Shown in pieces: positions 4,588-45,427 of a DNA stretch of 45,427 bases; the first letter of the stretch is position 1; the number at the start of each line of letters is the position of its first letter. The stretch covers positions 1-45,427 of IMG/VR virus record IMGVR_UViG_3300045988_086513. One strand, 5' to 3'. The position numbers were made by a program, and so were the translations under genes. The notes beneath the pieces are model-generated. The model did not search any database and had not been told where the DNA came from. It saw nothing but the letters and a program-made list of their open reading frames with translations. This stretch comes from a virus.

Positions 4588-6225
4588 ATGGGATTAACGC
4601 CGAAGCAGAAAGCGTTTGCGGATGAATATATCAAGAATGGCGGAAATGCATCTGATGCCGCAATGAAAGCCGGATATTCAGCAACAGTTGCCAAGAATGC
4701 AAAGAAAAACATCTTGGAAAAACGTGGAGTTTTTGAATATATAGCGGAAAAGCAAACTCTTCTGGAAAAGCAAAAAGGCACTGACATCATGTCACTGGCA
4801 GAAATCCAGCAACGCCGTTCCATGATCGCAAGAGGTGAGCTGACCGATTCATTCGGATTCGCCCCGGATTTCTCCGATCAGCTGAAATCTATGAATGATC
4901 TGGAGAAAGCACTTGCCATCAAAGAAACAAAAGAAGAACAGCAGAGGATAGCAGAGAGAGCCAGACTGCAAGAAGTCTATCATCTTGATTTGAGTGTTGT
5001 TCCGGATGTATTCCACAGGATGATTCGGGATATCCGGGCAAAGAAGCATTCGGAGTATATTCTTCCGGGCGGACGTGGATCCATGAAGTCCTCAACTATA
5101 TCACTGGTCATCCCGGAGCTGATCAAAAACAATTCGAACATGCACGCACTGATCCTGAGAAAAGTAGGCAATACCATTAAAGATTCCGTTTACGCTCAGA
5201 TGAAATGGGCACTGGACAAGCTGAACCTGTCAGAGGAATTTACCTGTAAAGTATCTCCCATGGAGATTACATACAAGGCAACCGGACAGAAGATATACTT
5301 TCGTGGTGCTGATGATCCATTAAAGATTAAGTCCATCAAGCCGGAGTTTGGTTATATCGGCATTGTCTGGTTTGAGGAGCTTGACCAGTTTGCCGGTCCT
5401 GAGGAAATCCGAAACATTCAGCAGTCCGCTATTCGTGGTGGCAATGAGGCATATAAGTTTAAATCTTTCAACCCACCAAGGAGTAAGAATAACTGGGCAA
5501 ATGAGTACACAACACAGGCAAAAGAAAAAGATGAGAGTGCAATGGTTCAGCACAGCACATATCTTGATCTGGGAATAGAGCAGGAGTGGCTTGGGGACAT
5601 GTTCCTGAAAGATGCGGAACATCTGAAAGAAACGAATCCAGATGCCTATGACAACGAATATCTGGGACATGCTAACGGTAACGGGGGCAATGTTTTTGAG
5701 TACATTGAAGAGAGAACGATCACGGATGAAGAAATCAGCCACTTTGACAGAATCTATCAGGGCGTTGACTGGGGTTGGATGCCTGATAAATATGCTTTTG
5801 TTCGTCTTTACTATGATGCTGCACGGGAAACAATCTATTTCATTGACGAAATGTACGAGAACAAGAAATCAAATGAATGGACAGCAGGGGAAATCAAGCG
5901 GCGTGGATATGATGACTACGAGATCACTTGCGATTCAGCTGAGCCTAAATCCGTGACAGACTATAGAGACTATGGACTGGCTGCCAGATCTGCGATTAAA
6001 GGTCCAGGAAGTATTGAGTATTCAATGAAGTGGTGGCAGAGAAGAAAGCTCGTGTTTGATCCTGTCAGAACACCGAACGCACGGGATGAATTTAAGAAGT
6101 ATGAGTATGAACGAGATAAGGACGGGAATATTATCAGCGGCTATCCGGATAAAGACAATCACCTGATCGACGCAAGCCGATATGCCACAGAGAGATTATG
6201 GACGAGAAGGGGGCATAGTGCATAA
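4588..6225 (+). CDS. Terminase with fused small-subunit (Terminase_2-like) N-domain and PBSX/XtmB-type large subunit
   Basis: The N-terminus LTPKQKAFADEYIKNGGNASDAAMKAGYS is a TerS HTH. From about residue 150, ILPGGRGSMKSS (Walker A) and a PBSX-type TerL body follow. It is a single 545-aa ORF. Confidence 0.8.
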   Translation: MGLTPKQKAFADEYIKNGGNASDAAMKAGYSATVAKNAKKNILEKRGVFEYIAEKQTLLEKQKGTDIMSLAEIQQRRSMIARGELTDSFGFAPDFSDQLKSMNDLEKALAIKETKEEQQRIAERARLQEVYHLDLSVVPDVFHRMIRDIRAKKHSEYILPGGRGSMKSSTISLVIPELIKNNSNMHALILRKVGNTIKDSVYAQMKWALDKLNLSEEFTCKVSPMEITYKATGQKIYFRGADDPLKIKSIKPEFGYIGIVWFEELDQFAGPEEIRNIQQSAIRGGNEAYKFKSFNPPRSKNNWANEYTTQAKEKDESAMVQHSTYLDLGIEQEWLGDMFLKDAEHLKETNPDAYDNEYLGHANGNGGNVFEYIEERTITDEEISHFDRIYQGVDWGWMPDKYAFVRLYYDAARETIYFIDEMYENKKSNEWTAGEIKRRGYDDYEITCDSAEPKSVTDYRDYGLAARSAIKGPGSIEYSMKWWQRRKLVFDPVRTPNARDEFKKYEYERDKDGNIISGYPDKDNHLIDASRYATERLWTRRGHSA

Positions 6226-6416: not shown

Positions 6417-7868
6417 ATGGGAATCATATCAACAATTAAAAGGTGGATAGGAATGTTTTTCAAAAATCAAGCAGAACAGGACTTCCGGACAGAGGTGATT
6501 GAGTCTCCTGTGATGGAAGCATTGGTGCAGAAATGTGCGAATATTTACAGAGGTACACCGTACTGGGTAGATGAGGATAACAGGATCAAGACGATCAACT
6601 TTGCAAAGTCTGTTTGTTCTGAGACTGCCCGGCTCACAACGCTTGCGATCGGTATCCAGATTGACGGATCCGCAAGAGCGACATGGCTTCAGGAACAGAT
6701 GGATAAGATCTATTTCCAAATCCGGCACTGGGTGGAATATGGTTGTGCTTATGGAACGGTGTTTATCAAGCCAAATGGAGAAGGCTTCGATATGTTCACT
6801 CCACTCGATGTTCTTTTGACAGATTGTGATAATCAGGAAGTTCGTGGAATCATCTTCAAAGACCAGTACATGGAAGGTGATAAATACTATACGAGATTGG
6901 AATATCACAGGTTTGTAGACAGTGTGGTTGATGGAGTAAAAGTATCACCTTATTACATCAGCAACAGAGCTTATGTGTCAACCAGTGCGGATAATATCGG
7001 CAATCCTATCGAGATGAGCAAAACAAAATGGGCTGCCTTACTGCCGGACACTCCACCAATCATGAAGTCTAATAACGAGAGCCTTGACGGTCCAATGTTC
7101 GGAGTATTCCGCACTCCCCAGGCGAACAATGTAGATCTCAATACCGTTCTTGGGCTTCCAATCTATGCAGAAGCTATTGAGGAACTGAAAGATCTTGATA
7201 TTGCATACAGCCGTAATGCCGGAGAGATTTTTGACTCTGAGAAGATTATCCTTGCGGATGACAGACTGCTGATGCCCGATGGAGTTCCGATCAAGAATAG
7301 AGGCGGCAGCTACAGTGAGAGACACAAAAAGGAAATGAAGTTGCCTCACTACGTTAAGAATGTGTTTAGTGCGGGACCGAATGAGTTTTATCAGGAAATC
7401 AATCCACAGCTCAATACAGACACCCGTATAGGCGGCGTAAATGCCCTTTTAAGCCAGTTGGGCTACAAGATTGGATTCTCTAACGGATATTTTGTATTCA
7501 ATGAATCCAGCGGCATCCAGACGGCTACAGGAGTGGAAGCGGAACAGCAGAGGACAGTCCAGTTCATCAAAGACGTTCGAGATAAATTGGAATCCTGCCT
7601 TGACGGTGCCATCTATGCAATGAATGTGTATGCAGATCTGTATGGCCTTGCCCCGGTAGGAACTTATGAAGTGACTTATGATTTTGGGGACATCCTGTAT
7701 TCCTACCAGGAAGACAAGGCAAGATGGTGGCAGTATGTATCTACTGGGAAAGTGCCTTTCTGGTACTACCTCATGAAGTTTGAGGGAATGAGCGAGGAAG
7801 AGGCTCGCGCTCTTGCGGATGAGGCACAGCAGCAGAATATGAATAGTGGACTGTTTGGAGAGGAGTAA
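6417..7868 (+). CDS. Portal protein (SPP1 Gp6-like)
   Basis: 483 aa, positioned after the terminase. The N-terminus is typical of SPP1-type portals. Confidence 0.8.
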   Translation: MGIISTIKRWIGMFFKNQAEQDFRTEVIESPVMEALVQKCANIYRGTPYWVDEDNRIKTINFAKSVCSETARLTTLAIGIQIDGSARATWLQEQMDKIYFQIRHWVEYGCAYGTVFIKPNGEGFDMFTPLDVLLTDCDNQEVRGIIFKDQYMEGDKYYTRLEYHRFVDSVVDGVKVSPYYISNRAYVSTSADNIGNPIEMSKTKWAALLPDTPPIMKSNNESLDGPMFGVFRTPQANNVDLNTVLGLPIYAEAIEELKDLDIAYSRNAGEIFDSEKIILADDRLLMPDGVPIKNRGGSYSERHKKEMKLPHYVKNVFSAGPNEFYQEINPQLNTDTRIGGVNALLSQLGYKIGFSNGYFVFNESSGIQTATGVEAEQQRTVQFIKDVRDKLESCLDGAIYAMNVYADLYGLAPVGTYEVTYDFGDILYSYQEDKARWWQYVSTGKVPFWYYLMKFEGMSEEEARALADEAQQQNMNSGLFGEE

Positions 7869-7870
7869 AA

Positions 7871-8929
7871 ATGGCTACATTTAAAGGAATTATCACGGCA
7901 GATGGTCAAAAAAGGCTACTATCTTATTTGGACTTAGCTGATAAACCGGAAGCAGATTCTGCTCTGACCACTGAGGGCGGGTTTGCGGATGCAAAGGCAG
8001 TCGGACGCAAGTTTACAGAAACGACAGCAAATATGGGAAAACTTGAACAGCAGATTGGCGAACTGTCAAAAGGTGGCGCCGGAGGAACTGCAAGTCCGTC
8101 CGAAGTCAAAAAGATAGTGGACGAGTATCTGAAAGAAAACCCGAAGAATTTTCTGCCAGACAACATTGTACTGGTTGAAGAATCTGATGATGAGATTATG
8201 ACCGCGGATGCGATCATGGGAGAAATTCTGGATAAATTGGAATTAAAGACTGTGAACGATCAGACACTGGGCCTGTATATCGGCACAAAACTGATTAGCA
8301 GTGTAAAACTGGAAGAATTCAAGACATCTGAGATTATCTGCACAGGCATTACGCTGGATCCATCCAATACCACAGCTTACGGAAAGGCTACGATTGAAGT
8401 GATCGCAACCGCGACCCCACAGGATTGTACTCAGAAAATAAGATGGTTTACCACGGACGCAGATCTTGCGACGGTGAGTGATGGAACCGTAAAAACAACA
8501 GGTAAAAAGGGTGAGGTCACTATTTATGCGATTTGTGGAAATTACAGGGCAGAGTGCAAGGTCGTAATCACCGCATATGTATATCCTGAGTTCAATTTCC
8601 AGATAAGTCAGGTATTGGAAACTGTTGGAGCGGCATATTCCAGAACAGAAGATAGTGCAGAGATGAGAATATCATCTGACTATATGCAGACACCAGTAGA
8701 CACTGTAATTACGCTGACGGCTGGTGGAAGTTATCTGTATCAGTTATACAAGTACAAAGATGATAAATTGGATTCGTTTACCTCATGGATTAGTTGTGCA
8801 GGAACAATTAAGATTGCGTCAGAAGAATTTTCAGGCTTTGCGATTAAAATCCGTAAAAGCAACTATGGCAAATGGACAAGCGACGATATTGCAGCATTTA
8901 CCAAGACGGTAACGATTGAAAGTGCGTGA
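7871..8929 (+). CDS. Ig-like (Big_2) domain structural or decoration protein
   Basis: ITLDPSNTTAYGKATIEVIATATPQDCTQKIRWFTTDADLATVSDGTVKTTGKKGEVTIYA is Big_2-like. The N-terminus has a fibre-type motif, ALTTEGGFADAKAVG. Confidence 0.6.
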   Translation: MATFKGIITADGQKRLLSYLDLADKPEADSALTTEGGFADAKAVGRKFTETTANMGKLEQQIGELSKGGAGGTASPSEVKKIVDEYLKENPKNFLPDNIVLVEESDDEIMTADAIMGEILDKLELKTVNDQTLGLYIGTKLISSVKLEEFKTSEIICTGITLDPSNTTAYGKATIEVIATATPQDCTQKIRWFTTDADLATVSDGTVKTTGKKGEVTIYAICGNYRAECKVVITAYVYPEFNFQISQVLETVGAAYSRTEDSAEMRISSDYMQTPVDTVITLTAGGSYLYQLYKYKDDKLDSFTSWISCAGTIKIASEEFSGFAIKIRKSNYGKWTSDDIAAFTKTVTIESA

Positions 8930-8943
8930 GGAGAGAAGCAGTT

Positions 8944-10665
8944 ATGGGAAAAGTATTCAAAGATAAACAGGGGAACGTCATTACAAAACTGCTTCAATTT
9001 GTGGCAACCGATGCGCAGGTCAACCAAGCTATCACGGATTACCTTGATAAAAACGGGATTACTCTGGCTGAGGGCGTGGACTTGAAAAGAATGTCTTCTG
9101 ACCTTAGTAAAACCTTGTCAGATGTGGATGGTATCAAAGAAGCTATGTCAGATCTTCAGCAGGCACAGACAAACGTTCTGTTGCAATACAAGGATCACTT
9201 CATAGATACGTTTGAGGCGGGTTATATTGATGACAAGACGGGAACTGATACAGAGGTAGCAGGCTATATCCGCAGTGTTGGGCTTCAAAAAATCCAGACA
9301 CAGAACTCTGTCTTAATCGTGAACGCGCCAACAGGATACCAGTATGCTTGGTATTTCTATGACGAGAACCAGAAGTATCAGGGTGCTACTCAGTGGATGA
9401 CTAAAACAGATGCGTATAGAATTACAGATTCACAGGTCGGATGGTATGTAAGATGCGTCATGTACAGCAGTGGGACGTTGAGTATAGACGCTATTGATAT
9501 TATTCTGGCAGGATCAGCAGTCACGGATATTCTGGATCAGCTCATGGAACAGCAGGGATCCTCTGAATTACTGGGAGAGGAAGTACTGTCGTCAGCGGAT
9601 AAGTTGGAACTGAATGTCACAAAAGCATCCTTGCAGTCCGTGTGTGATGTGAACTGCATTGTCATTCCGTTTCTGACAGATCTGCATATAACATGCACAG
9701 CGGGGAAGACACCAGAGGAATTGGCAGAAGGAGCAACTAAGATTCGAAGACATATTGCCTGTTATAATCTGCTTGCAAAGGAGTTCGACTTCGATCTATG
9801 CGCCTATGGCGGTGACTACCTCAACAATTCATCCCAGACCAACAAAGAAACCGCTCTCAATGCACATAAGGCAGTCAGGCTCCTGTTGGACAAAACTGAT
9901 AAGTCAGTGCCGGCAATCGTAGGCAAAGGGAATCATGATGATAATACCATGTATACGGACTATAAGAATGGTTATGTGGATTCTCAGAACCTGTACAAGC
10001 TGGTTACTGGAAAAGATTCGAGAAAGTCAAAGAGGGACGCAGAATTCCTTGAGCGATCATATGGTTATTATGACATACCCAATAAAAAAGTCCGGGTGTT
10101 CATGCTTAACAGTGACGATGTTCCAACTTCGGTGACATCAGATAACAAGCTCCTGTACGGCGGGCAAAACAACTCAGGATTCAGCCAGGAACAGATTCGG
10201 TTTGTAGCAGATCATCTTCTTTTTGATGAAAGCGGCTGGCAGGTAATATTTTTCAGTCATCATCCTTTGAAAACATTCGTGAATGGAGACGCAGAAGCAT
10301 CTGGCTATTCATGTAGCGGCGTGACTGCAACGCACGGTGGTCAGGCAATGCTTGACCTGATTACCGCTTTCAAAAATAAGGAGCAGGGAGCTGTAAAAAA
10401 TGTGGCGGCAGATTTTGAGGTATCTGTGGATTATGATTTTACTCAGAATAAATCGAACACAGTGATTGCCAGCATATGCGGGCATACTCATGTGTACTGT
10501 CATAAGCAGGAAGATGGCATACATTACATTGCAACCAGAGCGGTTCTGGGGCATCCGACTTATAACTATATCTCTACCAGTTGTTATATAGTCATCAACC
10601 GCAAATACAGGAAATTACATCTGATAGCCAATGGTGATGGGGACGATTATACATATTCTTATTAA
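8944..10665 (+). CDS. Calcineurin-like metallophosphoesterase with a long N-terminal extension (573 aa)
   Basis: Metallophosphoesterase motifs appear in order: LTDLH, GGDYLNN, GKGNHDDN, FSHHPL and GHTHV. The RBS is GAGGAGAG. Confidence 0.7.
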   Translation: MGKVFKDKQGNVITKLLQFVATDAQVNQAITDYLDKNGITLAEGVDLKRMSSDLSKTLSDVDGIKEAMSDLQQAQTNVLLQYKDHFIDTFEAGYIDDKTGTDTEVAGYIRSVGLQKIQTQNSVLIVNAPTGYQYAWYFYDENQKYQGATQWMTKTDAYRITDSQVGWYVRCVMYSSGTLSIDAIDIILAGSAVTDILDQLMEQQGSSELLGEEVLSSADKLELNVTKASLQSVCDVNCIVIPFLTDLHITCTAGKTPEELAEGATKIRRHIACYNLLAKEFDFDLCAYGGDYLNNSSQTNKETALNAHKAVRLLLDKTDKSVPAIVGKGNHDDNTMYTDYKNGYVDSQNLYKLVTGKDSRKSKRDAEFLERSYGYYDIPNKKVRVFMLNSDDVPTSVTSDNKLLYGGQNNSGFSQEQIRFVADHLLFDESGWQVIFFSHHPLKTFVNGDAEASGYSCSGVTATHGGQAMLDLITAFKNKEQGAVKNVAADFEVSVDYDFTQNKSNTVIASICGHTHVYCHKQEDGIHYIATRAVLGHPTYNYISTSCYIVINRKYRKLHLIANGDGDDYTYSY

Positions 10666-13175: not shown

Positions 13176-13334
13176 TTGTTTGGAGACTGAAAGTTTGGTG
13201 GCAGGAAAAGCGCAGGGCAGTACGTAGGAATGTATAACCGAGTTCCGAATACGTGCTGTTTATCGGTGATATAGTGACTTCCTCTAGTAGTCAATAAGTG
13301 AACGTGCTGAAATGGTTCTTCCAAACATGTACAT

Positions 13335-13406
13335 CGCAGGATAGAGAAACGGAATCTCGCAAGGTTCATACCCTTGAGACTGGCGGTTCGAATCCGTCTC
13401 CTGCAA
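13335..13406 (+). tRNA. tRNA-Met (CAT) with initiator-like features
   Basis: A full cloverleaf folds by hand: D stem GAGA/TCTC, anticodon arm CAAGG-TTCATAC-CCTTG, T arm GGCGG-TTCGAAT-CCGTC. It has a C1-A72 mismatch and A11:U24. Confidence 0.8.
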
Positions 13407-13530
13407 TTTATCTGCTCAAAGCTATGCTGTTTGTTCACAGGCGGTCTATGACTTGGGTGGATTGCCCTCCCATGGGGGAATGGTTATTGCTTATCCTGAT
13501 GACTGCTGTGCGGTCCGAAAAGCATAATAA

Positions 13531-13614
13531 TGTGGCTTCGCCAAGTGGTAAGGCACCGGGCTTTGATCCCGGGAGAGGAACACTCATTCATTGGTTCGAA
13601 TCCAATAGCCACAG
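13531..13614 (+). tRNA. tRNA-Gln (TTG) with a 17-nt variable region
   Basis: Acceptor TGTGGCT/AGCCACA, D arm GCCAAGTGGTAAGGC, anticodon arm CCGGG-CTTTGAT-CCCGG and T arm ATTGG-TTCGAAT-CCAAT. There are 17 nt between the anticodon and T stems. Confidence 0.7.
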
Positions 13615-13690
13615 CTACCCCGCCGGAGGTTTACCCGGCTTAATCCATTACCGCTGACGGGCGGTTAATAATCACGTTTAGGAGGATGTT

Positions 13691-15516: not shown

Positions 15517-16014
15517 ATGGCTTATGCAGATTATGATTTTTACACAACATATTTCGGCTCAGTTGTGCCAGAAAAGGACTTCCCAAGACTGGCAGAGAGA
15601 GCCAGTGATTTCATTGACACAATGACGTTTGACAGTCTGCTGTATGGAATGCCGAGTGACGCACGATCACAGAAACGTATCAAAAAGGCGGTCTGTTCGT
15701 TGACAGAGATAATATATCAGATCGAGCTTGCTGAAAAGAATGCAGTCAGTCAAGCGTCTGCAAGTGCGACCGACATTTGTGTCGGCGGCAAATCAACAGG
15801 CGTTGTAACTTCTGTAAGTTCCGGCAGCGAATCCATCTCTTACGCAACGCCTCAGCAGATTGGGGCAAGTGCAAAAGAGTGGAGCGCGGTATATGCCGCC
15901 GCCGGAGATGCAAAGAAAACAAATGACTTACTCTTAAAGACTGCTTTGCCGCTGTTAATGGGAGTAAGAACGGACGAAGGGATACCGATTTTATATGCAG
16001 GATTTCAAGGTTAA
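15517..16014 (+). CDS. Putative head-tail adaptor/connector protein
   Basis: AYADYDFYTTYFG...FPRLAERASDFID is typical of gp6/gp15-like connector proteins. It lies after the capsid gene. Confidence 0.5.
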   Translation: MAYADYDFYTTYFGSVVPEKDFPRLAERASDFIDTMTFDSLLYGMPSDARSQKRIKKAVCSLTEIIYQIELAEKNAVSQASASATDICVGGKSTGVVTSVSSGSESISYATPQQIGASAKEWSAVYAAAGDAKKTNDLLLKTALPLLMGVRTDEGIPILYAGFQG

Positions 16015-16348
16015 TATCTTAGGCTCTGAATGGAGCGTGAAGTTCGGAAACGAGGAAGAATATCCGAATCTGACAAATGTAGATGGCTATACTGATTTAT
16101 CAACACGGGAAATTGTGGTTGATGATATGGAGGCATCACAGGGACAGATTGGAGCAAAAGCAGACCTTGAAAGCTATCAGAAACAGGTTGTTAGACACGA
16201 AATCATTCATGCATTTCTGCTTGAATCTGGACTTGATTCCAATTCGAACAGTGCTGACAGTTGGGCTGTGAACGAAGAAATGGTTGACTGGTTTGCTATT
16301 CAGTCACCAAAAATTTTTAAAGTATTCAATGAACTTAAATTGATGTGA
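15995..16348 (+). CDS. Small HExxH metallopeptidase-like protein (117 aa)
   Basis: VVRHEIIHAFLLESG carries the HExxH motif, preceded by YTDLSTREIVV. Confidence 0.6.
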   Translation: MQDFKVNILGSEWSVKFGNEEEYPNLTNVDGYTDLSTREIVVDDMEASQGQIGAKADLESYQKQVVRHEIIHAFLLESGLDSNSNSADSWAVNEEMVDWFAIQSPKIFKVFNELKLM

Positions 16349-16380
16349 ATACCAGTTTTGTATACAGGAGTGTAATTGAT

Positions 16381-16896
16381 ATGAATTTTAAAGAAGCGTT
16401 TAAACTTATGAAACAGGGAGTAAAAGTAAAACTCCCGGGTTGGAATGGCTACTGGTGTTGGGATGATGATAAACAGACGATTATGATTCATTGCAGACCG
16501 AAAGATTCTGATGAAGGTCAGGGAGAAGTTCTCGATATCCGCGAAACGCAGAGTGTGGAATACACTTTCATGCACACGCAGAGAGATGACTGGATGATTG
16601 CTGATGAGAATAACTGTGGTGTTCTTGGCGGTCAGTCAACATTTGGATTTGGTGATGCTATCCGTTATCTAAAAAGGGGGCTCAAAGTGGCTCGTAAAGG
16701 TTGGAATAGGAAGAAACAGTATATTCAGCTTGCAACCGGTATTTCTTACAAGACAGCGGATGGTGAAGTTGTGAATTGCGAACATGATGCAATCGGAAAC
16801 AAAGCAGTGGCTTTTGTGGGAACATCTGGTGTACAGATGGGATGGCTTGCTTCACAGGCAGATATGTTAGCAGAGGATTGGATTTTCGCAGAATAG
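16381..16896 (+). CDS. Tandem DUF2829 (Tad2-family, anti-Thoeris-like) protein (171 aa)
   Basis: Repeat 1 runs MNFKEAFKLMKQGVKVKLPGWNG...DDWMIAD. Repeat 2 runs FGDAIRYLKRGLKVARKGWN...GWLASQADMLAEDWIF. The start at 16381 was chosen over the GTG at 16345. Confidence 0.7.
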   Translation: MNFKEAFKLMKQGVKVKLPGWNGYWCWDDDKQTIMIHCRPKDSDEGQGEVLDIRETQSVEYTFMHTQRDDWMIADENNCGVLGGQSTFGFGDAIRYLKRGLKVARKGWNRKKQYIQLATGISYKTADGEVVNCEHDAIGNKAVAFVGTSGVQMGWLASQADMLAEDWIFAE

Positions 16897-16910
16897 GAGG
16901 TATCCAGATA

Positions 16911-17180
16911 ATGGACATTTCAACATTAGGCTCATGTATAGCAATCGTTATGATTTGCTACATCGTAGGAATGGGCTGTAAAGCATCAAAAAGAGTCTCC
17001 GATGAATGGATTCCAGTAATCATGGCGGTTATTGGTGGAATTCTCGGAGCAGTCGGAATGGGAGTTATCCCGGACTTCCCAGCAACAGATTATATCACAG
17101 CAGTTGCGGTCGGTATGTTTAACGGGCTGTCGGCTACTGGTGTGAATCAGCTGATCAAACAGAATATTATGAAAGAGTAA
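16911..17180 (+). CDS. Holin (Hol44-like phage holin family)
   Basis: 89 aa with 2-3 TM segments. KASKRVSDEWIPVIMAVIGGILG...GLSATGVNQLIKQ is typical of this holin family. The RBS is GGAGG. Confidence 0.7.
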   Translation: MDISTLGSCIAIVMICYIVGMGCKASKRVSDEWIPVIMAVIGGILGAVGMGVIPDFPATDYITAVAVGMFNGLSATGVNQLIKQNIMKE

Positions 17181-17184
17181 GCTC

Positions 17185-17574
17185 ATGGGCGGTCGAGGAT
17201 CGTCAAGTGGTATGAGCGACAAAGGGAAGCCGTATGGAACGGAATATGAAACATTGTATCAGTTCGGAAACATCAAGTATGTCAGATACAAAGACGGATC
17301 AACAACGGCTCCCATGGAAACGATGACGAAAAACAGGATATATGCAACGATTGACCGCAAGGGAAATGTGAAACATATATCCTTTCATGGCAAAGAAAAT
17401 AAACGACGTAAACAAATTGATCTTGACCATTATCACACAGTTAATGGCAAGAAAGAAAAGCCACATTCGCATTATGGATATCTGCATGATGAGAACGGTA
17501 CCAGAAAGCCAGATGCGAGCGACAGGGCAATCATTGACAAAGTTAATAGAATATGGCAGAATAAAGGAAAGTAG
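17185..17574 (+). CDS. His-rich hypothetical protein (129 aa, MGGRGSSSG...)
   Basis: A well-sized ORF co-oriented with its neighbours. It contains HYHTVNGKKEKPHSHYGYLHDENG. Confidence 0.5.
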   Translation: MGGRGSSSGMSDKGKPYGTEYETLYQFGNIKYVRYKDGSTTAPMETMTKNRIYATIDRKGNVKHISFHGKENKRRKQIDLDHYHTVNGKKEKPHSHYGYLHDENGTRKPDASDRAIIDKVNRIWQNKGK

Positions 17575-17729
17575 TAGTTTAAGAGGGAAAACAGGTACCA
17601 AAACTGTGGCTTTGAGCTACAAATAAAATTCCATGTCAGATTCGCTAAGCAATCCTGTAATAGATAGTCTTTTATAGACTGCGCTGTCTGACCTCAATAG
17701 AGTTTTATTGTTTTGGAAGAATACAAGAT

Positions 17730-17754
17730 TCCGGTTCAAATCCGGACGCTTGCC
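17730..17754 (+). other. Orphan tRNA 3' fragment (T arm plus 3' acceptor strand)
   Basis: TCCGG-TTCAAAT-CCGGA followed by CGCTTGC-C. No complementary 5' acceptor strand lies within 180 nt upstream. Confidence 0.4.
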
Positions 17755-17760
17755 GAACGA

Positions 17761-17799
17761 GAGATGCCATATCAGAAACGATGTGGCGTCTCTTTTTTT
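17761..17799 (+). terminator. Rho-independent terminator
   Basis: A 9-bp stem, GAGATGCCA (17761-69) with TGGCGTCTC (17784-92), followed by T7 (17793-99). Confidence 0.75.
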
Positions 17800-17816
17800 G
17801 CTATAGGAAGGTAACT

Positions 17817-18458
17817 ATGGCAGATAAATCAACTAGCATAGCTTACGAAAATCTAAACCGCCGCATCTTTGAAGGTGTTGGGGAATACGGTATACCGCAG
17901 ATTAAACCGACTGTATTTACAGACGGTTGTGAATTTATTGGATTCAACTACGCCAGGGGAAAGTGCAGCAATCCAGAAGAGAAAGCTGTTCATTTCTTTT
18001 TGGACGATTACCAGTTTGATGCGCTATGGAGAAATCCAGACAGGTATGTGGACAAGCTGAGCAGATTCCGGTACATTCTGACACCGGACTTTAGTACTTA
18101 CACCGATTTCCCTAAAGCTATCCAGATATACAACCATTACCGCAAACACTGGATTGGTGCGTATCTGCAAGAATATGGTTGCCGTGTGATCCCGACAATC
18201 TCATGGAGTACACCAGATTCCTATGATTGGTGCTTTGACGGAGAACCGGACGGTGGAACGGTGGCAGTGTCTTCTGTTGGTTGCATGAACAGTAAGGGCA
18301 AAAAATGCCTATTCTTATCAGGATACAATGCCATGATTGAGCGGTTGCATCCGGAAAGCATTATCTTTTACGGAAAAGTGCCGGAAGAGTGCAAAGGTAA
18401 TATTGTTAGAATCAAAGCATTCCACGATAAATTCACGAAAACAATATGCGAGGGATAG
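17817..18458 (+). CDS. DUF4417-like protein (213 aa)
   Basis: VHFFLDDYQFDALWRNPDRY...LTPDFSTYTDFPKAIQIYNHYRKHWIGAY matches my recollection of DUF4417. Confidence 0.6.
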   Translation: MADKSTSIAYENLNRRIFEGVGEYGIPQIKPTVFTDGCEFIGFNYARGKCSNPEEKAVHFFLDDYQFDALWRNPDRYVDKLSRFRYILTPDFSTYTDFPKAIQIYNHYRKHWIGAYLQEYGCRVIPTISWSTPDSYDWCFDGEPDGGTVAVSSVGCMNSKGKKCLFLSGYNAMIERLHPESIIFYGKVPEECKGNIVRIKAFHDKFTKTICEG

Positions 18459-24424: not shown

Positions 24425-27401
24425 TGTAAGTAATGCATTCGAACAGAAAATAGAAAGTGGTTTTCCCGTCACGGAGGAAGTGCAGATCACATTTGCAAAC
24501 GGTGTGGTTAAGACGGTCAGAGACGAGATTCTGAATGCTGATAACGAGATCGCAGACGGCATTGATGGAAATTCGTTCCCGATCGGAACCACGGTGTGCA
24601 AAACCTGTGGGCTTGCACTGGACAATTCTTCGGAGCAGTGGAAAGATTATGATTTCTTCGGCGCAAAGCTGAAAGTCCGGTTAAAAATGACGCTGGACGA
24701 TGGGACCGTGGAAACCATCAACAAAGGCACATATACAGTTACTGTGCCGGAAGAATACGGAGAAGATGTGGAGCTGACGGCTCTGGACGATATGTACAAA
24801 GCCAACAAGACTTACACCACAAACTTACAGTTTCCGCAGACCGCTTTTTCTGTGCTTCGGGATGCCTGCCAGACCTGCGGTATCTCGCTTGGAGTAACAT
24901 CTATGGTTCACGGTGATGTGCAGATTTCGGCAATTCCAGAAGGTGTGACCTTCCGCGTTGTGATCGGATGTATTGCAATGCTGGATTCAGCCAATGCAAG
25001 AATCGATACAGATGGATATCTGCAGTTCCTCAAGTGGGATTTTTCAGACATCGAGGACACGGACAACGCGGCAGTGGTCAATTCTGATGGATTTGTTACC
25101 TTTGATGGCGGTTCAAACAGTGATCCCGATGATTATGTAATACCGACAGGAACCTGGGTGATTGATTCCGCCGGGTACCTTCACCTGCAGGGCAAGAAAA
25201 CAGAATCCATAGATGCGGAGCTGAGAGAATATATAAGCTCTCCAACGCTTTCCACGGACGATATTGTCATTACCGGCATCCGTGTAAAAAGCGGTGACGC
25301 TTCTTATTTATACGGCAAGACTGGATATGTTATTGAGTTGGAAAATAATCTTTTGCAGTCTGATCAGGTACAGACTGTAGCAAGTTGGATTGGTGATAAC
25401 CTTATTGGCATCAGATTCCGAAGCATGGAAGGAGATCTTCTGTATAATCCACTCATAGAGTTTGGAGATATGGCACGGACCTATGACCGGAAAGGAAATT
25501 CCTACATCACGCCGATCACTTATGCAGCAAGTCCGTTAAATGGAAAAACCACCCTGAAAACACAGGCGGAGAGTCCGATCCGCGGAACCAGTAAGTATTA
25601 TTCAGAAAATACAAAGACAGTTGTGGAAGCGAGAAAGCTTGTGCAGCAGGAAAAGTCTGCAAGGAATAAAGCTCTGAAAGAACTGAAAGAAGGTCTTACG
25701 GATGGATCTGGTATGTACGAAACCTCTGTCAAGCAAGAGGACGGAAGTGTTATATCATATGTCCACGATAAGCCGACAATTGAGAAATCAAAGATTGTGA
25801 TCAAACTCACTTCTAATGCGATCGGCATCAGCAATGACGGTGGTCAGACGTATCCATGTGGTTTTATCTTCAACGGGACGCTTATCACGAAAATATTGGC
25901 AGCTGAAGGGATTAATGCGGATTACATCGATACCGGTGCACTTACAGTTAAGGATGAGAAAGGAAACATCATTTTCCAGGCAGACATTGACAACAAGACA
26001 GTCCGGATATCCAGTGACTGCATCATGATTGGTGATCGTGCTCTTACAAAAGCATTCGAAGACATGGAAAATACGGTTGCAGAAAGCAAGAACATGAGCG
26101 TTCAGCTGAGTAATGAGTACCAGGCAATTCCTGCCGACGCAAAGGGCAATATTATAGGTGCATTTCCGGAAGTAAAAACCACGGTATCTGTGCTGTACGG
26201 AACTACAGATATCAGTAATGATTGTTCTTATACTGTACAGAAATCCGACACTGTGACAGGCTACTGGGGGTTGAAAGATCATACATACACCGTCACAGCT
26301 CTTACGGGGGATTCTGGGTGGGTTGATATTCGTGTAACTTACTTGCAGACACTGTCCATCACTAAGAGATTTACCGTGATCAAACAGCGCGGAGGAAAGC
26401 CAGGTAGGACTTACATCCTAGAACCGTCTTGCAATGTCGTAAAGCGTAGTGCGGATAAGGTGCTGTGTCCTAATTTCCTGGAATTTAAGGCATATTACAT
26501 GGACGGCGATTCCACCCAGAGAGTTGCGTACAAAGGCAGAATGGTCATTGAGCAGACTACCGATGGCGAGAAATGGACGACCATATACACCAGCTCCACA
26601 GATGAGGATGCTGTAAAACGCTATCTTGATGATACGGCACTGGATATCACGAATATCCGGTGTAGGCTGTATGCAGCAGGCGGAACTACTGATATGCTGG
26701 ACATGCAGAGTGTGACGATTGTCATAGATGTAGAAGCACTGACAGCAGAGCAAATCGTAGATATCCTGACCAATAAGGGTGAATGGAAAGGACTGTATTA
26801 CCTGAACGGACACCTTTATATCAGTTTTGATGCCGCTCTTGGAGGCGTGCTGACATTAGGGGGCGAATACAATGGAGATGGTCGAATGATAATGCGTAGA
26901 AGTGACGGTACACCTTTTGGGAGTATTGATAATGACGGGATTACTTTCTTCCAGTCTTATACAGAAAACGATACATCCTATGATTATGAAGGGTATCGCC
27001 TGACAAAAGATGGAGTAAAGAAAGTAAGCGGAATCAAGAGCACGGATGTATCTATACCAGATATTGTAACAAATGACGATTTTGTTATTGATTTTAATAA
27101 GATTCGCAAATATTCAGGTAAGATGCTATTGCAGACAAGTACTGTCACGCTGAGCGTTCCGAGTTTTAAGCCATCAGTTACTCGGCCGGTATCGGCAACA
27201 TTTTCGAAGTTGTCAGATGCTGCTGAATGCGTAGCTATATTTCAGGGTGTGACAGGGGCGGCAGGAAAGATTAGTTGTTGCAATTACAATGTAGAAGGAA
27301 ACAAGATATCAGCAGTGTTTGCCAATCTCGGAGATGAGGTATTGGGCGGTACAGCAGTATTCCAGGTTTTGCAGTATGGATATATCGGAGAAGAATATTA
27401 A
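24417..27401 (+). CDS. Tail tip / receptor-binding tail protein (994 aa)
   Basis: A large protein after the Dit-like gene with a TTG start and a GGGGTG RBS. The N-terminus is typical of prophage tail proteins. Confidence 0.65.
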   Translation: MINVSNAFEQKIESGFPVTEEVQITFANGVVKTVRDEILNADNEIADGIDGNSFPIGTTVCKTCGLALDNSSEQWKDYDFFGAKLKVRLKMTLDDGTVETINKGTYTVTVPEEYGEDVELTALDDMYKANKTYTTNLQFPQTAFSVLRDACQTCGISLGVTSMVHGDVQISAIPEGVTFRVVIGCIAMLDSANARIDTDGYLQFLKWDFSDIEDTDNAAVVNSDGFVTFDGGSNSDPDDYVIPTGTWVIDSAGYLHLQGKKTESIDAELREYISSPTLSTDDIVITGIRVKSGDASYLYGKTGYVIELENNLLQSDQVQTVASWIGDNLIGIRFRSMEGDLLYNPLIEFGDMARTYDRKGNSYITPITYAASPLNGKTTLKTQAESPIRGTSKYYSENTKTVVEARKLVQQEKSARNKALKELKEGLTDGSGMYETSVKQEDGSVISYVHDKPTIEKSKIVIKLTSNAIGISNDGGQTYPCGFIFNGTLITKILAAEGINADYIDTGALTVKDEKGNIIFQADIDNKTVRISSDCIMIGDRALTKAFEDMENTVAESKNMSVQLSNEYQAIPADAKGNIIGAFPEVKTTVSVLYGTTDISNDCSYTVQKSDTVTGYWGLKDHTYTVTALTGDSGWVDIRVTYLQTLSITKRFTVIKQRGGKPGRTYILEPSCNVVKRSADKVLCPNFLEFKAYYMDGDSTQRVAYKGRMVIEQTTDGEKWTTIYTSSTDEDAVKRYLDDTALDITNIRCRLYAAGGTTDMLDMQSVTIVIDVEALTAEQIVDILTNKGEWKGLYYLNGHLYISFDAALGGVLTLGGEYNGDGRMIMRRSDGTPFGSIDNDGITFFQSYTENDTSYDYEGYRLTKDGVKKVSGIKSTDVSIPDIVTNDDFVIDFNKIRKYSGKMLLQTSTVTLSVPSFKPSVTRPVSATFSKLSDAAECVAIFQGVTGAAGKISCCNYNVEGNKISAVFANLGDEVLGGTAVFQVLQYGYIGEEY

Positions 27402-27414
27402 ACAGGAGGTACAT

Positions 27415-29064
27415 ATGCAGAAAAATAACATCGAAGTACTGAGAAAAATTCTTTATGCGGTAGAAAGCGGCGGTCAGGTTTATGGCTGCCAGAATTATGC
27501 AGCATTCATCGGAGCGGGCGCAAATTGTGCAAATGAGAAAGCAATTACGATCGGAGCTGGTCAGTGGTATGCTGGAGAAGCAAAAAAACTCTTGCAGAAA
27601 ATTCAGAGGGCAGATCCGGCGCAGTTCAAGAAGCTCGACACGCAGAGTATTGAGTCAGATCTACTCAAAAAGGACTGGTCTACATATGCGATTGCCGCAA
27701 CTTCCGCAAAGGCGAAGTGTATTGTTGCGATCATCAACTCAACGACTGGCAAAAAATGTCAGGATGAACTGATGGACGAGCAGATTACCGAATATGCTGC
27801 CAGCATTGCAAAGACCTATGGCTCTATGCCGGACACCGCTATGATGGAGTGTATCAATATCATTCATCAGGGCGGCTCATCTGCGCTGAAAAGGATCCTT
27901 GCTAAGACCGCAAAACCTTACACAGCCAAGAGTATCTACGCGGCTCTGAATACAGACCCCGCCGATCCGCGTACCAATCAGGTCGGAGATTATACCACGC
28001 GCCAGAAAAAGGTATATGAATTTATTACAAAATATGCTTTAGATACAGCAACCGGAGCAGCTACCACAACAGAAAACAAGAAGGAGGAAAGCACAATGTC
28101 AACAGCACAGCAGAGAATCGACAAGGCTATTACCTGGATGGAAGAAACCGCAAAGGATGACAGACACGGATATTGCCAGGATCATCGTTGGGGCGAAGAT
28201 GGAGACTACGATTGTTCTTCTGCTGTAATCACGGCATGGGAACAGGCGGGCGTGCCGGTAAAGAGTAAAGGGGCAACCTACACCGGAAATATGCTGTCAG
28301 TATTCAAAGCGAACGGATTTGTAGACATGACAGCACAGGTCAACAGATCTACAGGCGCAGGCTTGAAACGCGGTGATGTGCTGCTGAATACCGTGCATCA
28401 TACCGCCATGTATTGCGGTGATGGGAAAGAAGTCGAAGCTTCCATCAACGAGAAAGGCACAGCCCACGGCGGTACACCGGGTGATCAGACAGGAAAAGAG
28501 TTCCTGATTCGTACATATCGTAATTATCCATGGACAAATGTTCTAAGATATATCGGAGGAAACAGCGCAACAGCTACAACCAAGAATTATCTTGAAATTG
28601 GAGATTCAGGAGCAGCAGTAAAGACCATGCAGCTCATGCTGATCGAATGCGGTTATTCTTGTGGAACGGCAGGAGCAGACGGTGAGTTTGGATCCGGAAC
28701 AGATGCCGCTCTGAGAAAATTCCAGAAAGATAACAGTCTTGTCGTAGATGGTCAGTACGGACCAGCATCCAAGATGAGACTGACTGCACTCCATAATGCG
28801 AAAGCCAGTGGGAATGGGTCTGAAAACAAAACTCCATCCAAGACACCGAAATGGGTAGGAGCTGTCAATACAAATGAGCTCAATGTTCGCACCGGAGCCG
28901 GGACAAAAAATCCAAAACTTATCGCTTATCCGCTCCTGAGACAGCATAATCTTGTCGATGTGTGTGATACTGTTCGTGCTACTGACGGCACGGACTGGTA
29001 CTATATCCGTATTGCAGGCAAGTACTATGGTTATGTATGCGGAAAGTATATCAGCAGAGTATAG
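27415..29064 (+). CDS. Multidomain endolysin (N-terminal lysozyme/transglycosylase-like, NlpC/P60-like, PG_binding_1, SH3)
   Basis: Four regions: AVESGG in the N-domain; DCSSAV...HHTAMY in a Cys/His peptidase-like core; LEIGDSGAAVKTMQLML...DGEFG (PG_binding_1); and an SH3-like C-terminus. The RBS is AGGAGG. Confidence 0.8.
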   Translation: MQKNNIEVLRKILYAVESGGQVYGCQNYAAFIGAGANCANEKAITIGAGQWYAGEAKKLLQKIQRADPAQFKKLDTQSIESDLLKKDWSTYAIAATSAKAKCIVAIINSTTGKKCQDELMDEQITEYAASIAKTYGSMPDTAMMECINIIHQGGSSALKRILAKTAKPYTAKSIYAALNTDPADPRTNQVGDYTTRQKKVYEFITKYALDTATGAATTTENKKEESTMSTAQQRIDKAITWMEETAKDDRHGYCQDHRWGEDGDYDCSSAVITAWEQAGVPVKSKGATYTGNMLSVFKANGFVDMTAQVNRSTGAGLKRGDVLLNTVHHTAMYCGDGKEVEASINEKGTAHGGTPGDQTGKEFLIRTYRNYPWTNVLRYIGGNSATATTKNYLEIGDSGAAVKTMQLMLIECGYSCGTAGADGEFGSGTDAALRKFQKDNSLVVDGQYGPASKMRLTALHNAKASGNGSENKTPSKTPKWVGAVNTNELNVRTGAGTKNPKLIAYPLLRQHNLVDVCDTVRATDGTDWYYIRIAGKYYGYVCGKYISRV

Positions 29065-30716: not shown

Positions 30717-32204
30717 TTATAATTTTCTCAAATTGTTGCGAGGGCCTTTGAACAGGCAGACTGTGTATGGATCAGGCATTTCGTAATCGCCCCACAGAGT
30801 ATGCAAGATATCCGATGTTCTGATCTCAGGATCAGTAGCAGAACTGAGTGGGATATCGAGTTCAGCAGACTGACGAAATTCTTCTGCGAGCATAGTTTTA
30901 TTGAATTCGGCTGTTGGATCAATAGAAAGCACCAATCGCTCCAAGTCATCAATATTTACTTTAAAAAATTCTTTTCGAAGATTTACTTTATTAAGTCGTT
31001 GCTCATTTAGCATATCATGCATTTTTTTCTCAAGTCCGACAGCATCTTTTGAAAAAATAAAGCTGTGAACATCGAATTTAAACGGAACACTTGCACTTCC
31101 CAGTTCGTTCACTCTGTCTTGAGGATCTAGTCGGCGGGTCATACCTATTTTGAATACATCTTTACCGAAAGAACCTAAGTTACTAATGATGTATACATTA
31201 CCTGCTTTTCCATTCTGGAGATTAGTAATCTCTTCTTTTTTAACAGCTACACCAGATAATTGATGTTGAAGTTCTAAAATTTTGGCTTTTAATTTATCAA
31301 CTTCTTCGCTTGAAGATGCCTGTTCTAAGGAAGTTTTTACTTTTTCAATTTCAGCGACATATTTACTTTCTTCTTTTTCAATTTTCTTTCGTTCAAGTTC
31401 AAGAGCCTTTCGCTCTTCTGCCTCTTGTCGCATTTGCTCTTTTAAAGCCATTTGTTCCTGTCGAGCCTGTTCTCTTTTGACATAATAGTTATATTCAATT
31501 TTCACTGCATTAATAAAGAGATATTCAATTTCTCCGACGAACTTGGTAAGTGTGCCAGCTATGCTCTGATTTCCCTCACCTGCGATTTTTAAATATTTTG
31601 CAGTGACGGAATGGACATCATCAATTGACTTCTCAAGTTTTTCATATTTTAAATTGTAAAGAATATTCTGTAATTCTGCTCGTAAAGCGATTACCATTAG
31701 TGAATAAATAGATTTGTTTGCTTTGGTTGTATAGCGAGATTCGTATAAACTAAGCAATTTATCTATTTGTTTCTCATTGTCTTTGTACGCCTTTCTGAGT
31801 TCCTTTACGTCCATAGAATGTAATTGTAAGATTACAGATGGGGCAAGACAATCGAAATCACTTTTATCGTGAGGATTTAAGCGGCAGTTATTGTATGGTA
31901 TGTTAGATGATAAAAAGGTATCTAATGCATATTCTACACTTCGATATAGCTCCTTGTACCGAGATAGTTTATTGGCCTGAGTGGTTACTTGCTTATCTAG
32001 TTTTTGCTGTTGAGCTGATAAAGAGGAAATTTCTTCCCGTTGTTTGGATAAGATTGAATTATTATCAGAAATTTCCTGATTCATTTTGTCAAGGCGTTCA
32101 CTAATTTGAAAATATTCATCTGCGTGCAAAAGTTGTAGTTTTCGTTTTAAGGCTTCATTTTCTTCCTTGATTTTGCCAACTCTAAAAAAATCCAAAAATC
32201 CCAT
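30717..32204 (-). CDS. DUF4041 / T5orf172 (GIY-YIG-superfamily-like) protein, 495 aa
   Basis: A long coiled-coil N-region is followed by NVYIISNLGSFGKDVFKIGMTRRLDPQDRVNELGSASVPFKFDVH, which resembles T5orf172. The RBS is AAAGGAG. Confidence 0.75.
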   Translation of the reverse strand: MGFLDFFRVGKIKEENEALKRKLQLLHADEYFQISERLDKMNQEISDNNSILSKQREEISSLSAQQQKLDKQVTTQANKLSRYKELYRSVEYALDTFLSSNIPYNNCRLNPHDKSDFDCLAPSVILQLHSMDVKELRKAYKDNEKQIDKLLSLYESRYTTKANKSIYSLMVIALRAELQNILYNLKYEKLEKSIDDVHSVTAKYLKIAGEGNQSIAGTLTKFVGEIEYLFINAVKIEYNYYVKREQARQEQMALKEQMRQEAEERKALELERKKIEKEESKYVAEIEKVKTSLEQASSSEEVDKLKAKILELQHQLSGVAVKKEEITNLQNGKAGNVYIISNLGSFGKDVFKIGMTRRLDPQDRVNELGSASVPFKFDVHSFIFSKDAVGLEKKMHDMLNEQRLNKVNLRKEFFKVNIDDLERLVLSIDPTAEFNKTMLAEEFRQSAELDIPLSSATDPEIRTSDILHTLWGDYEMPDPYTVCLFKGPRNNLRKL

Positions 32205-45250: not shown

Positions 45251-45427
45251 ATGTTAATCAGAAGTCAGGATAAAACAGCGCTGGTAAAGTTTGAAAACAT
45301 TGTAGTCAATCTAAAACTCCCAGATTCATTGAATGTTATATGTTGGAGTTTGCAGGATGCACAGAGAAGCGGAGGATATTTTATTTTAGGAAAATATTCC
45401 ACCAAAGAAAAAGCTATAAAGGTACTG
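45251..45427 (+). CDS. 5' part of the junction-spanning CDS (continues at 120..230 of the window)
   Basis: AAGGAGG RBS. MLIRSQDKTALVKFENIVVNLKLPDSLNVICWSLQDAQRSGGYFILGKYSTKEKAIKVL... Confidence 0.6.
   Translation, partial: MLIRSQDKTALVKFENIVVNLKLPDSLNVICWSLQDAQRSGGYFILGKYSTKEKAIKVL
45309..45427. repeat. Terminal overlap, copy 2 (identical to 1-119)
   Basis: Same 119-nt string as the window start. Confidence 0.9.

Follow-up and report, generated by a model that had tools for sequence, protein, structure and literature searches.

The 171-amino-acid (aa) protein encoded at positions 16381–16896 (+ strand) of the gut-phage contig ena:ERZ27229725:k119_89544 consists of two fused Tad2-family domains, and its gene travels on a one-gene mobile cassette. 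The window analyzed here is that entire metagenomic contig, 45,427 bp long. We favor, at a probability of roughly 0.6, the interpretation that the protein is a phage counter-defense sponge for a nucleotide-derived immune signal, in which the C domain binds the type I Thoeris signal and two chains probably come together in a tetramer-like assembly. Tad2 sponges, which build their pockets between identical protomers, are a model for how phages neutralize signaling immunity (Thoeris, CBASS, Pycsar). If our interpretation is true, the protein would be a widespread natural fused heterodimer of two Tad2 subfamilies, in which a homo-oligomeric sponge has diversified by paralog specialization, and the fusion could reveal new ligand specificities. 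The analysis also draws attention to a candidate counter-defense gene, abundant and unannotated, that is carried by prophages of Clostridia dominant in the human gut (Blautia, Mediterraneibacter, Dorea).

Two Tad2-family domains in one chain

The open reading frame (ORF) at 16381–16896 (+) ends in a stop codon at 16894–16896 and has no internal stops, and its translation is identical to the 171 aa quoted in an earlier sequence-only reading of the window. An AGGAG Shine-Dalgarno motif, read off the sequence, lies at 16366–16370 (+), 10 nt 5′ of the ATG. The sequence-only reading had placed both halves in the DUF2829 family and had suggested checking each half against Pfam and a structural model against Tad2 structures; both comparisons bear the assignment out. 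The whole protein matched PF11195 (Tad2-like, formerly DUF2829) in two stretches (E = 2.9 × 10−24, 85.8 bits, Pfam), and neither half by itself fell below the family’s gathering cut-off of 25 bits: the C half scored 68.2 bits (E = 9.5 × 10−19) and the N half (residues 1–82) a borderline 25.1 bits (E = 2.5 × 10−5), with residues 1–73 falling on profile positions 1–72/73. A full-length monomer model made with AlphaFold2 (AF2), using 45 homologs as input, reached a predicted local distance difference test score (pLDDT) of 88.2 and a predicted template modeling score (pTM) of 0.71. Searched against the PDB with Foldseek, this model returned 24 matches at E ≤ 1 × 10−3, all of them Tad2/AcrIIA7 and with template modeling (TM) scores of up to 0.81 on the target, and the next match came only at E ~0.8. 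The protein thereby shows the Tad2 fold, in which an N-terminal helix packs against an antiparallel sheet and a short helix and a strand lie at the C terminus. A fold search of BFVD agreed with the PDB search and held no full-length match to the tandem, the best TM score on the query being 0.41. Residues 1–170 also matched phrog_1048, a family of “unknown function” (E = 3.7 × 10−55). The whole protein is acidic (isoelectric point (pI) 5.7), with a net charge of −5 on the N domain and a mildly basic C domain (pI 8.8).

Pfam, phmmer, Foldseek and contact mapping all identify residues 88–171 (16642–16893, +) as a canonical Tad2 domain, which we call C-type. It carries the motifs GWN (W108, N109) and GWLASQADMLAEDW (W155, A160, D161), and phmmer relates it to every solved Tad2/AcrIIA7 chain (E = 3 × 10−10 to 7 × 10−8). 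It shares with SPO1 Tad2 (Gp34.65; PDB 8SME/8SMF/8SMG/8WJE) its fold (TM up to 0.79–0.81 on the target, E ~1 × 10−5), its Pfam family, a β2–β4 insertion of ~22–24 residues and its standing as a phage-encoded accessory gene. The pocket of SPO1 Tad2 for 1″–3′ glycocyclic ADP-ribose (gcADPR) lies between two protomers, with W25, N26, W73 and D79 supplied by both, T78 by one and I63/T65 by the other; one protomer lends its β1–β2 loop, β3–β4 loop and β4, the second its β1–β2 loop, β4–α3 loop and α3 (10.1101/2023.05.01.538930). By alignment, W25 and N26 correspond to W108 and N109 of the C domain, I63 and T65 to V146 and T148, W73 to W155, T78 to A160 and D79 to D161. The C domain thus has the contact residues of an SPO1-type gcADPR site, retaining six of the seven (five identical, one conservative), with T78 to A160 as the sole change. 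Across 45 tandem homologs that are 38–86% identical to the query, our set for all conservation counts, the residues at W108, N109, W155 and D161 are kept in 44, 34, 40 and 45 sequences, respectively.

The Thr-to-Ala change recurs in Tad2_82, an 80-aa protein from IMG/VR that inhibits type I Thoeris and that shares GWN and GWLASQADMLA-DW with the C domain (42% identity over 85 residues), although it is single-domain and has another β2–β4 insertion. All five tested Tad2 proteins with GWN and WLASQ(T/A)DML (Tad2_70, 71, 82, 83 and HgmTad2) were positive on type I Thoeris, counting as positive only the y/y/y rows of Table S2 in Hadary et al. 2025, whose “n, N/A, y” rows are ambiguous in meaning (10.1101/2025.08.24.671296). 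At the level of sequence, then, the C domain bears the hallmarks of a type I Thoeris sponge. HgmTad2/AcrIIA7 (PDB 8KBI–8KBM, 9KZR) provides the best PDB sequence matches and shares the gcADPR motif residues (W21/N22 and the S90/T92/D93 region), but its binding of cyclic dinucleotides depends on an insertion of 41 residues (R31, S47, F70, N85) that is missing here. With such a site defined as a 35–41-residue insertion between β2 and β5 carrying these four residues, the C domain has none, its insertion of ~22–24 residues giving no alignment to that of HgmTad2.

The N-type domain (residues 1–76; 16381–16608, +) was delineated by Pfam, hhalign and AF2/Foldseek, and its signature reads KVKLPgW-N/G-GYWxWD, LDIRET, VEYT and DDWxIAD (in short, WxGYWxW and DIRET). 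When 26 N-type domains were aligned with 10 experimentally studied single-domain Tad2 proteins in hhalign, they matched with 96.9% probability over residues 1–23 only, that is, helix α1, strand β1 and the G-W-x-G turn. Modeled alone, the N half gave a pLDDT of 92.8 and a single meaningful PDB match, again SPO1 Tad2 (TM 0.59/0.59, E = 0.016, 18% identity); the runner-up was an unrelated protein at E = 0.25. In a multiple alignment, I53-R54 falls on the SPO1 Tad2 strand I63-K64. Although its Pfam score alone is borderline, these three independent results support the N half as a strongly diverged Tad2-like domain. Helix α3 is four residues shorter by alignment, and a conserved aromatic cluster (Y24, W25, W27) and the charged DIRET strand are gains relative to Tad2, whereas most family members have lost the Asn of GWN and the Trp equivalent to W73. 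The N-type counterparts of the seven SPO1 contacts are W21, N22 (Gly in 28 of 45 family members), I53, E55, Phe here in place of W73 (Leu/Ile in most) and, in an uncertain stretch of the alignment, R68 and D69. Only W21 and I53, plus N22 in this protein, are clearly kept, so the N domain lacks the SPO1-type contact set. Its most conserved residues (W21, G23, Y24, W25, W27 and D52-I53-R54) sit on the β1–β2 loop and β4. The first repeat had been described as Cys/Trp-rich, which holds for tryptophan, with W21 and W71 invariant and W25 and W27 nearly so; conservation of the cysteines is incomplete (C38 in 34/45, C26 in 19/45 and C79 in 31/45 homologs). A cysteine metal site is ruled out by the finding that no Cys is invariant in the family.

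The same sequence-only reading had spoken of a duplicated domain, and we can reject a recent internal duplication: the two halves align to each other over only ~20 residues (45% identity), they belong to distinct subfamilies, and each also exists as a standalone gene, which argues for a fusion of two subfamilies. They are joined by a linker (residues 77–87; 16609–16641, +) with the family consensus xNCPxLGG, in which N78 is conserved in at least 90% of homologs and C79 and a Pro at position 80 are each found in 31/45. This linker is ordered in the full-length AF2 model (pLDDT 91–93 across residues 71–90), and it persists in the longer fusions P0145, P0152 and P0156 with the N-linker-C module intact. 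Together with the pTM of 0.71, these features suggest a fixed N–C unit.

The characterized members of the family that we found are, as had been stated, single-domain and oligomeric: SPO1 Tad2 (89 aa), HgmTad2 (~104 aa), MoTad2 (88 aa) and pdAcrIIA7 (158 aa) form tetramers (10.1101/2023.05.01.538930, 10.1101/2023.11.15.567273, PMC13133391), and the 17 Tad2 homologs and three controls (SPO1, Hgm, Mo) in Table S2 of Hadary et al. 2025 are all single-domain (10.1101/2025.08.24.671296). Where SPO1 Tad2 is a homotetramer with two identical pockets and has T78 where the C domain has Ala, the present protein has an N-type domain covalently upstream; pdAcrIIA7, for its part, bears a helical 48-residue head in place of a second Tad2-like domain. 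Our searches of the accessible literature turned up no two-domain Tad2, either described or tested, the word “tandem” occurring only in unrelated contexts.

Distribution, conservation and mobility of the gene

The fusion is not unusual: it corresponds to phrog_1048, has dozens of representatives at 50% identity and is found in cultured phages and many Clostridia prophages, so that the architecture is already catalogued, without a function, and abundant. Searching the 50%-identity representatives exhaustively, we obtained 2,419 hits, and 269 sequences (268 homologs and the query) were classified with local domain hidden Markov models. N-then-C tandems made up 167 of the 269, alongside three C–C tandems, one triple-domain protein and longer proteins that retain N-linker-C. 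P0153 and P0260 look like genuine C–C tandems; P0121, also scored as C–C, is probably an assembly or recombination artefact, with its junction in mid-domain and no linker. The best 120 clusters at 90% identity in a large protein collection were mostly ~170 aa long, with a query coverage of 89% or more and, in nearly every case, of 99–100%. The copies in cultured phages, gp19 of the R. gnavus phage phiRg507T2_3 (QOI66109.1, 72% identity) and DO134P1_00011 of Dorea phage DO134P1 (WAX12350.1, 68%), share the full two-domain architecture and show no difference in kind; both are annotated as hypothetical, and we found no study of either. Prophage copies occur in Blautia species and other Lachnospiraceae, and in Merdimonas, Anaerobutyricum, R. 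bromii, Fimenecus, Clostridium and Eubacterium. The N-type subfamily often has no Pfam assignment in precomputed tables, and because Pfam barely detects it, current anti-defense annotation probably misses it.

Each half is also encoded by itself. C-type standalone genes include P0182, P0235, P0158 and BFVD A0A8S5QUV8 (65%), at 60–68% identity, and N-type standalone genes include Ruminococcus phage RG-TP1 gp24, one in C. perfringens phage CP51, P0319 and P0380. P0319 (74 aa) occurs in 26 collection blocks without a C-type neighbor, and the existence of such N-only genes means that the N-type must be functional without a C-type partner as well. We searched the large protein collection with an N-type profile, covering proteins of up to 135 aa, a scope from which a ratio of standalone to fused copies is not derivable. 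In SpaA1, BceA1 and relatives of a Bacillus/Staphylococcus phage lineage, an N-type-like and a canonical gene form a DUF2829 pair with overlapping stop and start codons, in the order seen in the fusion but as separate polypeptides (L047 1277–1782 in SpaA1). SpaA1 P60 has the N-type signature KVKRSIWGGYWF (WGGYW), without the Asn and the W73 equivalent; unlike the N-type domain here, it keeps the canonical C-terminal helix (QADMLAEDW) and is in this respect intermediate between the types. P61, the second gene of the pair, is a canonical Tad2, which suggests that in Bacillus/Staphylococcus phages P60 and P61 are Tad2 paralogs naturally paired as two genes. We rejected a second candidate for such a split pair, the successive N-type and Tad2 genes of loci L055 and L056: because the N ORF ends within the linker and profile positions 1–9 are missing from the C ORF, this is an interrupted tandem.

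Across the 45 tandem homologs, M1, F3, W21, G23, W71, R105, D161, D166 and W167 are invariant; Y24, W25, W27, T33, D52, I53, R54, Y61, T62, A74 and N78 in the N half and linker, and F90, A93, K98, G100, W108 and A164 in the C half, are nearly so. Close pairs are more alike in the C domain (80% identity) than in the N domain (70%), and divergent pairs show the reverse (51% in the N domain, 36% in the C domain), the N domain being the more conserved half in 89% of divergent pairs.

The gene lies on a single-gene insertion (16349–16907, +), a moron cassette defined by nucleotide homology to the closest related phage, L012 (MT836350.1), which ends at 16348 and resumes at 16908. The insert holds the Tad2 fusion gene and its ribosome-binding site alone, and in L012 a gene with an HExxH motif is directly followed by the holin gene. 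The slot between the head-tail adaptor and holin genes of another relative, L011 (MT835739.1), is occupied by a 514-aa N6-adenine DNA methyltransferase with an NPPY motif, and enzymes of this kind are classic anti-restriction cargo. The site thus shows what is expected of an anti-defense moron, namely presence/absence variation at a hotspot with counter-defense cargo. A homolog with 91% protein and 84% nucleotide identity comes from a phage with only 27% identity in the major capsid protein, where it stands between minor head and scaffold genes and the similarity is restricted to 16381–16890. In phiRg507T2_3 the fusion gene lies between holin and endolysin, and overall it occupies at least three distinct genomic positions across phages. 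The insertion/deletion at a hotspot, the varied cargo and the sharing of the ORF alone across backbones identify a mobile accessory gene rather than a structural component.

A candidate sponge and its alternatives

We propose that the C domain, judging from its retained contacts, is a working Tad2 half-site for 1″–3′ gcADPR (3′cADPR). Each Tad2 pocket draws on two protomers, and for this reason two fusion chains probably form a tetramer-like particle of four domains, in which the N-type domain would stand in for half of the protomers. Of the pocket elements, the N-type domain appears to keep those of one protomer, the Trp of the β1–β2 loop and the β4 strand (I53-R54). Its losses, taken with the gained aromatics and the DIRET strand, suggest that it either completes an asymmetric, remodeled pocket with the C domain or has a separate specificity; the concentration of conserved N-type residues on the β1–β2 loop and β4, with decay of the elements that the other protomer would supply, would fit a division of labor in a hetero-pocket. 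The suggestion made in the sequence-only reading, that the tandem might bind two different signaling nucleotides or form a pseudo-oligomer, likewise stands as a hypothesis. Placement in the late structural operon, beside capsid genes, would co-time the sponge with capsid protein, and a passage of 10.64898/2026.06.04.730250, citing Roberts et al. 2025, implicates the capsid as the trigger of type I Thoeris.

Several observations weigh against this proposal. The literature yielded no binding or plating experiment on any tandem form, and a literature search for Thoeris in Lachnospiraceae/Blautia gave nothing usable; the proposal presupposes Thoeris in the hosts (Blautia and other Lachnospiraceae). 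Among tested proteins the C domain is nearest to Tad2_84 (62% identity), for which every assay was negative, a result that says little because Tad2_84 is a truncated 60-aa fragment. Tad2 homologs vary widely in specificity (His-ADPR, N7-cADPR, cUMP/cCMP and cyclic dinucleotides), which makes prediction of the ligand from motifs no more than suggestive. The N-type domain, since it also occurs alone, may act independently and need not be simply a partner of the C domain. Distant tandems (P0147, P0151, P0166 and P0245) lose the GWN of the C domain and keep the N-type signature, and this degeneration of C while N stays conserved suggests that the family’s conserved activity may reside in the N domain. 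Lastly, anti-defense genes are often expressed early, and this gene has no detectable promoter of its own.

There is a broader possibility, which we hold only tentatively: that the N-type is a separate sponge subfamily with its own ligand, fused to canonical Tad2 as an asymmetric hetero-pocket or as a dual-specificity sponge. The ligand might then be an immune signal that no known phage sponge targets; the conserved N domain would supply the core activity, and adaptability would lie with the variable C domain. The chain could also carry two independent inhibitors, with N and C each self-associating across chains to bind different signals. Standalone genes for both halves (N: P0319, P0380, RG-TP1 gp24 and CP51; C: P0182, P0235, P0158 and A0A8S5QUV8) speak for such a dual-specificity arrangement, as do the peak of N-type conservation on the pocket elements of Tad2 (β1–β2 loop and β4) and the precedent of Tad2 proteins with two separate pockets and varied specificities. 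We nevertheless think it unlikely, since the ordered, conserved linker and the pTM of 0.71 suggest a fixed N–C interface rather than beads on a string, a canonical homotypic N–N pocket would need the Asn of GWN and the W73 equivalent, which most N domains lack, and N-type proteins have no known ligand.

Two further explanations would take the protein away from signal sequestration altogether. AcrIIA7 is the top PDB sequence match (9kzr, E = 2.8 × 10−10; 8kbi, E = 2.9 × 10−9), which raises the idea of an RNA-binding anti-CRISPR whose oligomer binds tracrRNA in a basic groove and blocks assembly of the Cas9 ribonucleoprotein. Headless AcrIIA7 binds tracrRNA through K58, K66, K71, K93 and R101 (PMC13133391), and three of these five align to K98, K106 and K111 of the C domain, whose pI is 8.8. 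Those three lysines, however, are general Tad2 features, the other two basic residues belong to a long β2–β5 insertion missing from the C domain, and the protein as a whole is acidic (pI 5.7, N domain −5); moreover, Li et al. failed to reproduce the anti-Cas9 activity of HgmTad2/AcrIIA7, and the idea presupposes type II CRISPR-Cas in the hosts. We judge it improbable. More remote still is a virion- or lysis-associated accessory protein with no part in anti-defense, which the positions of the gene might suggest: here it separates the head-tail adaptor region from the holin, in phiRg507T2_3 it stands between holin and endolysin, and in P0004-type phages it is flanked by minor head and scaffold genes, with no promoter of its own evident. 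Yet the gene is missing from a close relative whose structural genes are otherwise syntenic, its positions differ between backbones, the single ORF moves between unrelated phages, and the relatives of its fold are exclusively soluble sponge proteins. Insertion of morons into late operons is, besides, common in temperate phages. The sponge reading remains the one that we prefer.

Gene neighborhood and host phage genome

The cassette belongs to a variable island between the head-tail adaptor and tail-completion genes (window 15995–18458; L011 1372–2916; L012 1524–3322), which in the window comprises genes for a phrog_1233 HExxH protein, the Tad2 fusion, a Hol44-type holin, a phrog_9479 protein and a DUF4417 protein. 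The upstream neighbor, a 117-aa phrog_1233 protein (15995–16348, +), lies in the island but outside the cassette, and is present in L012, where it alone fills the adaptor-holin slot, and absent from L011. Its HExxH motif reads VRHEIIHAF, it has no Pfam match and its gene begins 20 nt before the adaptor gene ends; it may be a small accessory protein resembling a metalloprotease. The downstream neighbor, the Hol44-type holin (PF16079; 16911–17180, +), is a conserved flank of the hotspot, 93–94% identical in L011 and L012. It is encoded midway through the structural module, with ~10 kb separating it from the endolysin (27319–29064; ELLD, PG_binding_1 and amidase domains).

Further downstream, phrog_9479 and DUF4417 genes vary in presence among relatives. 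The 129-aa phrog_9479 protein (window 17185–17574) and its 164-aa counterpart (L012 2183–2677) have only the N-terminal MGGRG(S/G)SSG in common, so that this position looks like polymorphic cargo with a conserved leader. A scan for promoters and terminators around the fusion gene found 12 promoter-like sites where 11.7 were expected, a background level at which no statement about a promoter of its own is possible. The best promoter-like site of the region (TTGACA, a 17-nt spacer and a TG-extended CAGAAT) and a terminator-like hairpin (15-bp stem and T-run), at 17534–17562 and 17759–17794, respectively, lie shortly 5′ of the DUF4417 gene (17817–18458), which may be a separate transcription unit.

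Two features recur beside Tad2-type genes elsewhere. A DUF6275 gene (86–101 aa) stands directly 3′ of Tad2-type genes, or one gene further on, in several unrelated gut phages (L005–L010, 10548–10817; L048–L052, 3531–3836; L055–L056, 3507–3767), and may be a co-traveling accessory or anti-defense candidate; tblastn found none in the window. In L005–L010, the carriers of the 91% homolog, a Phage_min_cap2 minor head protein is fused to an ADP-ribosyltransferase toxin domain, PF03496 (~7859–9622), two genes 5′ of the Tad2 fusion.

The window shares 119 identical bp at its two ends (1–119 = 45309–45427), a length equal to the assembler’s k-mer size, from which we take it to be a complete circular phage genome of ~45.3 kb; its GC content is 42.6%. 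The source is a temperate tailed phage of gut Clostridia, with genes for terminase, scaffold, major head protein, head-tail adaptor, tail and endolysin and, for lysogeny and recombination, an integrase, a helix-turn-helix repressor, RecT/YqaJ and a Bro-type antirepressor. Adjoining the integrase is a 495-aa protein with a T5orf172/MUG113 (GIY-YIG-like) domain (30717–32204, −), a possible moron of the lysogeny module. The large terminase ORF (4588–6225) matches Terminase_2 (the small-subunit domain, residues 3–109) as well as Terminase_3 and its RNaseH-like domain, and may be a TerS–TerL fusion. Genes for tRNA-Met (CAT) and tRNA-Gln (TTG) lie at 13334–13407 and 13531–13615, between the minor capsid and scaffold genes, and a tRNA-Met is also carried by Dorea phage DO134P1.

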